From Myxococcota bacterium (GTDB taxonomy: Bacteria > Myxococcota_A > UBA796 > CAJQPC01), in the NCBI GenBank assembly GCA_036229005.1, contig JAZAMN010000049.1, positions 32,001 to 96,000 of the forward strand: a stretch of DNA of 64,000 nt, read 5' to 3'. Shown here piece by piece: positions 5,333 through 6,523 of the stretch; the first letter of the stretch is position 1, and each line of letters starts with the position of its first letter. The notes beneath the pieces are model-generated. The model was not told the origin of the DNA and did no database searches. It saw only the letters and a list, made by a program, of their open reading frames with translations. A program made the position numbers and the translations under genes.

Positions 5333-6523
5333 CTATTGGCTACCCAGGATCTCGGTGACCACGCCAGCGCCCACGGTGCGGGAGCCCTCGCGGACCGCGA
5401 AGCGGGTGCCGGCCTCCATGGGCACCGCCCGCTGGAGGGTGACCTGGAGGGAGGCGCGCTCACCAGGCTGCATGACCCCGCGCTCTCCGAGGTCCAGCGC
5501 CCCGGTGACGTCCGTGGTGCCGAAGAAGAACTGTGGCATGTAGCCGGAGGTGAAGGCCTTGTGGCGGCCGCCCTCCTCCTTGGGGATGGCGTAGAAGTCC
5601 ACCTGCGCGCGGCGGTGGGAGGCGATGGAGCGGGGAGCCGCAATGACCTGCCCGCGCTCGACCTCCTCCCGACGCACACCCCGGAGCAAGCAGCCCACGT
5701 TCATGCCGGCCTCGCCGATCACGTCCTTGTGGAACTGCTGCACGCCGGTGCAGGTCACCACGCGCTCACGACCCTCCAGGGAGAGGCCGACGATCTCGAC
5801 CTCATCGCCGGGGCGGATGACGCCCTGATCGATGCGGCCGGTCACGACGGTCCCGCGCCCGGGGATGGTGTGCACGCCCTCGATCGCCATGCGGAAGGGA
5901 CCGTCCAGGTTCCGGACGGGGTCCGGGATCTCCTGGTCCAGCGCCTCCAGCAGCTCGACGATGCACGCGACGGCGGGGTCCTGGCTGCGGCCGGCCTGCA
6001 CGGCCTCGAGGGCCTTGAGGGCAGAGCCGTAGACAAAACGGACGTCCGCGTAGCCCTGGGCCTCCAGCTCCTCCGCGGTCTCCATCTCCACCAGCTCCAG
6101 GAGCTCGGGATCGGCGATGTCCGTCTTGTTGACGAAGACCACCAGGTGATCGATGTCGGCGGTGGTGCGGGCCAGCAGGATGTGCTCCTTGGTCTGCACC
6201 TGGGGGCCCTGGGAGCCGTCGACCAAGAGGATCGCGCCGTCCATCTGGGAGGCGCCGGTGATCATGTTCTTGATGTAGTCGGCGTGGCCGGGGCAGTCGA
6301 TGTGGGCGTAGTGGCGGGTAGGGGTCTCGTACTCCACGTGGGCGGTGTTGATGGTGATGCCGCGGGCCCGCTCCTCCGGCGCCCGGTCGATCTGGTCGAA
6401 GGCGACGGCGGCGCCCCCGTGGATGGCGGCGGCGACGTGGGTGAGCGCGGCGGTGAGGGTGGTCTTGCCGTGGTCGACGTGACCGATGGTCCCGACATTC
6501 ACGTGCAGCTTCTTGTTGTGCAT
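5333..6523 (-). CDS. tuf: Elongation factor Tu, divergent stand-alone paralog (tuf3-like), 396 aa
   Basis: [34 protein letters not shown] and [26 protein letters not shown]; no neighbouring rps/fus/secE genes. Confidence 0.93.

Follow-up and report, generated by a model that had tools for sequence, protein, structure and literature searches.

The nearest described counterpart of the gene reported here is EF-Tu3 of Streptomyces (tuf3, SCO1321; actEF-Tu2 in Atkinson 2015, PMC4342817), which is a divergent, stand-alone extra EF-Tu encoded beside a canonical copy. According to that survey of translational GTPases, the actinomycete proteins are the only subfamily clearly distinct from EF-Tu. EF-Tu3 is further reported to be resistant, and tuf3 to belong to the WblC regulon (PMC7157823). 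A second point of reference is the long tRNA array of Anabaena, which is induced by ribosome-targeting drugs according to PMC8421152; its main text describes control by promoter repeats and contains neither ‘tuf’ nor ‘EF-Tu’.

Here we describe a second EF-Tu (P0001) encoded by a Myxococcota bacterium (assembly GCA_036229005.1) in a window of 64,000 nucleotides, that is, the whole stretch of DNA that was analysed (contig JAZAMN010000049.1, positions 32,001 to 96,000). P0001 and its relatives form a second EF-Tu subfamily of that distinct sort, beside the actinomycete one. Judging from gene, leader and phylogeny, P0001 is likely to be a backup factor, and a role in antibiotic resistance is possible.

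An intact second EF-Tu gene

5333..6523, minus strand: divergent EF-Tu paralog P0001, 396 aa (ORF translation, profiles, alignment and model)
5285..5333, minus strand: hairpin directly after the EF-Tu stop, predicted end of a one-gene transcript (−33.4 kcal/mol)

The coordinates, frame and peptides quoted for this 396-aa EF-Tu in the initial annotation proved correct throughout, and ORF translation finds no internal stops in the frame. P0001 matches EF-Tu chains of the PDB across its full length in a structure-database search, lies above the cut-offs of the curated profiles PRK00049/12735/12736 and scores 504.5 against TIGR00485, that is, below the equivalog cut-off of 522.4. The predicted model (pLDDT 87.5) has the three-domain EF-Tu fold, with a TM score of 0.93 to GTP-form EF-Tu. 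In the alignment, none of 21 GTPase-core positions is changed (P-loop, switch I T61, switch II H84 and NKxD) and H66, H84, E215, F261, N273, R288, R318, R377 and E378 are retained; at the level of sequence, both the GTPase core and the tRNA-binding surface are intact. Identity as SelB was rejected, given the length of 396 aa (against approximately 600 aa with a C-terminal SECIS-binding part) and a TIGR00475 score of 166.7 against a cut-off of 242.25 bits; a SelB-like ORF of 607 aa is found on contig C20, and the SelB-like gene and tRNA-Sec are separate from the P0001 gene.

A canonical tuf elsewhere in the genome, as the initial annotation had envisaged, was found at G000:C11:176612-177802; it is the only other EF-Tu of the genome, shares 56.5% identity with P0001, follows tRNA-Thr/Tyr/Gly/Thr and precedes genes that we take, from their translations, to be rpoBC-type. 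The P0001 gene stands alone outside the str and tRNA-tufB clusters, with neither tRNA nor mobile neighbours. The downstream hairpin, matched in stability by 2 of 200 shuffles and not flagged by a terminator scan, is likely to end a one-gene transcript. RNA run X22 yielded only short pieces with many differences at conserved N-terminal motifs, and no long pieces spanned the gene. Also nearby in the window are a leucyl/phenylalanyl-tRNA-protein transferase (2402-3175, minus strand), a nucleoside-kinase-like protein (3212-3865, plus strand) and an APH-family phosphotransferase (6829-7791, minus strand), none of which is conserved beside family EF-Tus in other loci.

Phylogeny and distribution of the family

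P0001 does not cluster with canonical EF-Tu, a result on which the backup reading of the initial annotation depended: grouping of the family with its genome’s own canonical tuf is rejected (AU p=4e-9), and 16 sampled family proteins, P0001’s among them, occupy one side of a branch with 100/100 support (LG+C20). Three EF-Tu3-like proteins likewise form their own clade (100/100, LG+C20), and all 96 family proteins are monophyletic in FastTree at lower support (0.79). The AU test rejects neither family plus EF-Tu3 (p=0.23) nor family plus myxobacterial canonical copies (p=0.79), both values being rough (fast searches, 5000 replicates). The canonical EF-Tu of the window’s genome itself groups with myxobacterial canonical copies at only 67/84. 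A SelB-rooted tree was discarded as prone to long-branch effects, and a position of P0001 inside the actinobacterial EF-Tu3 clade (L339, L341 and L342) was ruled out, the two clades being separate at 100/100 each.

Family members were collected with a sequence pattern that had to be tightened, as many of the 119 loci matched by an initial degenerate version were Verrucomicrobiota canonical EF-Tus and a few did not encode EF-Tu. Most named carriers are myxobacteria, including the cultured Archangium gephyra, Nannocystis pusilla, Enhygromyxa salina, Labilithrix luteola and Vitiosangium sp., and canonical copies accompany the paralog in all five of these. A second EF-Tu match was present in 14 of 22 further genomes and the family copy stood alone in the other 8/22, in assemblies of unstated completeness. 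The DNA runs that contain the locus are marine, and the window’s organism is probably a marine relative of the myxobacterial carriers. Distribution is patchy: with P0001 as query, the family was found in 3 of 41 relatives and in none of three same-genus genomes, and it occurs in 16 of 401 genomes of the phylum. Named phages and plasmids gave no family member, their best matches lying below 60% identity. Searches of open-access text turned up no printed description of the family or its leader, although the family could appear in the additional files of PMC4342817 and PMC8421152.

Stand-alone family copies have no conserved protein neighbour, and 113 flanking ORFs included no conserved resistance or biosynthetic neighbour. 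Two same-family genomes (L335, G020:C99; L336, G016:C801) encode a second, more degenerate EF-Tu-like paralog with an altered P-loop (GHEGHGKT or GHQGHGKT) and switch I, 46–48% identical to P0001 and branching apart from its family. An array- and phage-borne subclade (L170, L043, L108, L346 and relatives) has a KGGTVRD-type switch I otherwise seen here in Verrucomicrobiota canonical EF-Tus, which suggests recombination with, or adaptation to, Verrucomicrobiota-type hosts. The stand-alone tuf of a Streptomyces plasmid record (L340, NZ_CP109451.1) branches with E. coli EF-Tu (100/100).

An attenuator-like leader

The region upstream of the paralog contains the following elements.

6782..6787, minus strand: −35-like hexamer TTGCCG of a predicted sigma-70-type promoter (TTG-start scan)
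6760..6765, minus strand: predicted −10-like hexamer TAACTT, 7 nt before the uORF start
6660..6752, minus strand: leader uORF of 30 codons, 8 of them Ser (5 TCG, 1 TCC, 2 AGC)
6671..6678, minus strand: putative antiterminator segment CCGGAGGG within uORF codons 25-28, complementary to 6615-6622
6585..6626, minus strand: intrinsic-terminator-like hairpin (6595-6626) with a U-rich tail (6585-6594)
6530..6539, minus strand: Shine-Dalgarno-like purine run preceding the EF-Tu start (from the sequence)

Given the short distance between the −10 hexamer and its start, the uORF is predicted to be nearly leaderless. A −35 (TTG-start)/−10 pair lies just before the uORF in 18 of 32 leaders as against 10 of 640 shuffles; a stricter promoter scan did not list the site in the window.

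Among 109 non-redundant family loci, each with at least 300 nt of upstream sequence, 45 have an upstream terminator-like hairpin and 50 a tRNA within 2.2 kb, with only 3 having both; the hairpin rule is passed by 6 of 84 canonical tuf loci. We aligned 33 leaders picked by eye from the 45, and as kin among them are not independent, relatedness inflates the leader tests that follow. A uORF of 21–42 codons ending 22–38 nt before the terminator is present at 32/33 chosen loci, compared with 17/257 control positions. Of the leader codons, 21% specify serine (9% after shuffling; 12% and 6% in the other frames); TCA is used for 65 of 209 of these Ser codons, whereas the EF-Tu genes use it for 7 of 424. 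The terminator stem is paired in 92% of alignment cells and 5 of its 8 pairs have two-sided changes, at loci that were chosen for having a terminator.

Pairing between uORF and terminator was supported by some tests and not by others. The terminator arm pairs best with the segment 30–18 nt before the uORF stop, and arms outpair those swapped in from other loci in 2000 of 2000 permutations. Folding of the window’s leader under a ribosome mask gave a uORF–arm pairing of mostly approximately 0.78 (lowest 0.41) with the ribosome at codons 1–21, 0 with the ribosome beyond codon 22 (a drop that is partly built into the mask) and 0.34 without a ribosome; values above 0.5 were reached at 25/32 loci and in 26/192 shuffled leaders. 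The antiterminator failed a fixed-column covariation test (59.8% paired versus 61.3% shuffled), and locus-by-locus shuffles were mostly not significant. As the terminator fold is the more stable one at equilibrium (−85.8 versus −79.6 kcal/mol for the antiterminator fold), the switch would have to operate co-transcriptionally, under kinetic control.

No Rfam family matches the leader. Its own genome holds no second copy and hence no regulon of this kind, and the closest relative with DNA (L207, 80% identity) lies between tRNA-Leu and tRNA-Ser without such a leader. Other upstream elements were seen in the family: at eight loci (L170, L188, L195, L213, L233, L346, L356 and L358) a motif CCCCTGGAGYCGG...CCGRCGGGG followed by a purine-rich run, approximately 75 nt upstream of EF-Tu and distinct from the attenuator, and at L087 and L368 tandem repeats (three copies of approximately 49 nt before EF-Tu and several of approximately 21 nt before tRNAs).

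The same leader before tRNA clusters

A sequence model of the leader found matches in 14 of the 71 genomes searched at order level and in 14 of 151 at class level, two overlapping sets. New strong matches from outside the training set precede family EF-Tus (L392, L393 and L421-L423), and eight others precede small tRNA clusters (L394, L396, L397, L398, L403, L425, L426 and L428), including one from a genome of the same genus that yielded no family EF-Tu; the remaining weak matches were ordinary terminators or unexplained. In five of the eight tRNA-cluster leaders, the amino acids of the downstream tRNAs are more strongly represented than in 30 or more of the 32 EF-Tu leaders. A Ser/Tyr-rich leader, for instance, precedes four tRNA-Ser and two tRNA-Tyr genes, and a His/Arg/Asp-rich leader precedes tRNA-Arg, -Asp and -His. 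The correspondence was first noticed post hoc in five loci (1/120 permutations); with three loci added and a stricter start rule, 240 of 40320 permutations did as well. Leader codons do not match the downstream tRNAs at L394, L396 and L425, two of which depend on the choice of uORF frame. These patterns suggest that leader codons may be tuned to the cargo.

tRNA arrays and jumbo phages

At least three tRNAs lie upstream of EF-Tu in 26 of the 109 family loci. Examples of chromosomal arrays contain 37 tRNA genes together with a family EF-Tu and a Ro60/TROVE gene, and the arrays that contain a family EF-Tu cover many amino acids. Huge phages encode EF-Tu, and the family signature is present in 20 IMG/VR records (four of which duplicate metagenome loci), 19 with tRNA genes nearby and some with RtcB, an RNA ligase or aminoacyl-tRNA synthetases. 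The record G562 (376,674 bases with terminal repeats) has 39 tRNA/tmRNA genes, RtcB and, in a PHROGs search of 90 mid-sized ORFs, portal, major head, baseplate and tail-fibre matches. No Pfam matches to terminase, gp23 or sheath were obtained in 5–10 viral records; as phage hallmarks come from G562 only, the viral status of the other 19 rests on the IMG/VR label. In the tree, viral copies are intermingled with cellular ones. The family would appear to move between chromosomes and jumbo phages within a kit of spare translation parts (that is, tRNAs, RtcB and Ro60). Its occurrence in phage tRNA arrays is not explained by predation on antibiotic producers, the use that the initial annotation had proposed.

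Substitutions at drug-related positions

For comparison with drug-related positions, we aligned P0001 and its 120 best homologues to E. coli EF-Tu (locus L003; mature E. coli numbering) and later examined 96 family, 39 canonical and 3 EF-Tu3-like proteins. The substitutions first read by eye (Q124T, Y160Q, D216G, F218H, R233Q, E259Q, R262H and R333G) and the retention of A375 all held up in the formal alignment, Q124T adjoining a one-residue insertion (ARTTADIDH). Their reading as a pattern at elfamycin sites did not: among 212 positions conserved in at least 85% of the 39 canonical EF-Tus, 52 are changed in P0001, spread evenly across the three domains, and drug sites are changed at 7/23 against 45/189 elsewhere (Fisher p=0.32). 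For this count the GE2270A and bottromycin sites were taken from PMC8183687 and PMC12393407. The kirromycin and pulvomycin sites were those that we take to be involved. EF-Tu3-like proteins likewise lack enrichment (5/23, p=0.40) and yet EF-Tu3 is reported to be resistant, so the counting argument is weakened and resistance is not refuted.

The changes differ in how widely they are shared. Q124 and R233 are retained in 94/96 and 93/96 family members, so that Q124T and R233Q, private to the lineage of P0001, carry little weight, all the more as the genome’s canonical EF-Tu itself has S233. This S233 recurs in two same-genus genomes, and several canonical copies within the taxonomic family have Asn at 160; 233 and 160 are positions that we presume to be resistance sites. 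Family-wide changes are R333G (96/96), E259Q (88/96), loss of Y160 (88/96) and R262H (70/96), together with D106/S108/Q109 (96/96), and positions 216 and 218 vary widely.

A dedicated elfamycin-resistance factor, with the pocket changes selected against EF-Tu antibiotics and the leader acting as a drug sensor, is the foremost alternative and, in our view, a doubtful one. E259Q would remove the R223–E259 salt bridge that, according to PMC8183687, holds GE2270A locked in place; the same source lists D216 and R262 as further contacts. The same two residues (D217 and R263 in that paper’s numbering) bind bottromycin, and change of the Asp confers >512-fold resistance in B. subtilis, according to PMC12393407. 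The invariance of R333G and the presence of H160, as in EF-Tu3-like proteins, in 32/96 members point the same way. Resistance to drugs that trap EF-Tu on the ribosome (kirromycin and bottromycin) is recessive beside a sensitive copy, whereas a single resistant copy suffices against drugs that block ternary-complex formation; if P0001 is resistant, therefore, the drugs concerned are likely to be of the GE2270A/pulvomycin type. Insensitivity to these is plausible from the substitutions, and protection from kirromycin would be less so. Weighing against a dedicated resistance factor are, besides the lack of enrichment and of conserved resistance or biosynthetic neighbours, the retention in P0001 of the kirromycin sites A375, G316 and Q329 and of G257 and G275, the description of GE2270A as active on Gram-positive bacteria, and the fixation of identical residues in phage copies (E259Q 18/18, R333G 18/18). 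A search for named resistance alleles found none. Of the roles originally proposed, the backup factor has gained ground, with a canonical tuf present, a separate clade and a conserved attenuator-like leader, and the multi-elfamycin resistance factor is only plausible.

Proposed function

We consider it fairly probable that P0001 is an intact second EF-Tu serving as a spare aminoacyl-tRNA delivery factor, likely attenuated and likely induced by ribosome slowing in its Ser-rich leader. By default, transcription attenuation at the leader terminator would keep the paralog off. With a ribosome at codons 1–21 the antiterminator pairing is computed to form, and beyond codon 22 to be prevented; slow decoding over the first two thirds of the uORF, where Ser codons are frequent, may thus allow read-through, and the spare EF-Tu would be made. 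It would be called upon under conditions that impair either the housekeeping EF-Tu or the tRNA pool. With its altered domain-2 pocket (D216G, F218H, E259Q and R262H) and R333G, it may then function where the housekeeping factor is blocked, most plausibly by drugs of the GE2270A/pulvomycin type, which block the ternary complex, or by damage of another kind to EF-Tu or tRNA. The association with tRNA arrays, RNA repair and phages points to general translation rescue rather than a single drug class.

A shifted aminoacyl-tRNA preference (for example, for Ser-tRNA or atypical array tRNAs), a possibility also raised in the initial annotation, with the Ser-rich leader sensing the very shortage that is repaired, seems unlikely to us. 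Four residues in the aminoacyl-pocket region are changed and two acidic ones neutralized, E259 contacts A76, most tRNA-cluster leaders match their cargo, and a serine-specific EF-Tu is reported from nematode mitochondria. The family nonetheless sits in arrays that span many amino acids, positions 216 and 218 are variable, and the leader–tRNA correspondence has its exceptions.

We regard as improbable a phage counter-defence factor that replaces destroyed or co-opted host EF-Tu and was later captured by chromosomes, with little present use. The viral records, the phage structural genes and RtcB of G562 and the interleaving of viral and cellular copies would fit such an origin, and defence systems that cleave (Lit and type IV Thoeris) or co-opt (Avs7) EF-Tu are described in PMC13581612. 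The chromosomal copy, however, is fully ameliorated (GC3 0.94 in a locus of approximately 70% GC) and without mobile neighbours, and the control element has been kept across many lineages. Moreover, G59-I60 and T382, which we take to be the Lit and Doc sites, are unchanged in P0001.

A decaying duplicate whose differences are drift, as patchy presence and evenly spread changes might imply, is scarcely credible and already largely refuted by conservation, given the intact frame, invariant catalytic motifs, a signature fixed family-wide, a conserved leader and the synonymous nature of 3/4 strain differences in the gene.

Beyond the spare delivery factor itself, we tentatively envision an undescribed mobile system of ‘spare parts for translation’ on myxobacterial chromosomes and in jumbo phages, in which leader codons sense the shortage that the cargo repairs (matching codons for tRNAs and rare Ser codons for EF-Tu) and the rebuilt aminoacyl pocket of the gated EF-Tu either escapes drugs or defences aimed at EF-Tu or favours other aminoacyl-tRNAs; we would not expect this broader scenario to hold in full. 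The family ties together the purpose of divergent extra EF-Tus, the role of long tRNA arrays and the presence of translation factors in huge phages, and its occurrence in cultured myxobacteria makes it directly testable. Its members also provide natural variation at the sites of GE2270A, bottromycin and pulvomycin, and the leader could act as a codon-programmable sensor of decoding stress.

Comparison with known systems

The EF-Tu3 references used here (L339, L341 and L342) are tuf3-like by inference (that is, second, divergent copies, two of them from named Streptomyces EF-Tu entries). Y160, F218, M260, R262, F323, M349 and M351 are changed in both these proteins and the family, and residues 141 and 344 are absent from both. 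The two are nevertheless 53–54% identical and form separate clades: only the EF-Tu3-like proteins have C81M, R230A, G275A and R373G with R333 and E259 kept, a signature that P0001 lacks, whereas the family has D106-S108-Q109, E259Q and R333G, without the N-terminal residues. Unlike EF-Tu3, the family occurs in myxobacterial genomes, tRNA arrays and jumbo phages. The second EF-Tu copies of Streptomyces examined here also have an upstream uORF and hairpin: at L341 (2816-3030) and L342 (minus strand) a conserved 33-codon Ala-rich uORF precedes a GC hairpin lacking an obvious U tail, a hint that leader control may extend to tuf3-like genes, and the leader model of the family does not match these Streptomyces leaders.

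In its layout (that is, a uORF, a putative overlapping antiterminator, an intrinsic terminator and a downstream gene), the leader resembles his/phe-type leaders and the uORF attenuators of wblC/whiB7 and vmlR. Unlike those attenuators, it gates a spare EF-Tu or spare tRNA genes, and its codons often match the downstream tRNAs. The L-arrays typified by the Anabaena trn operon (PMC8421152) share supernumerary tRNAs, HNH, RtcB and RNA-repair neighbours and a patchy distribution with the arrays described here, which differ from the Anabaena array in that they embed an EF-Tu gene and that some begin with a uORF–terminator leader.
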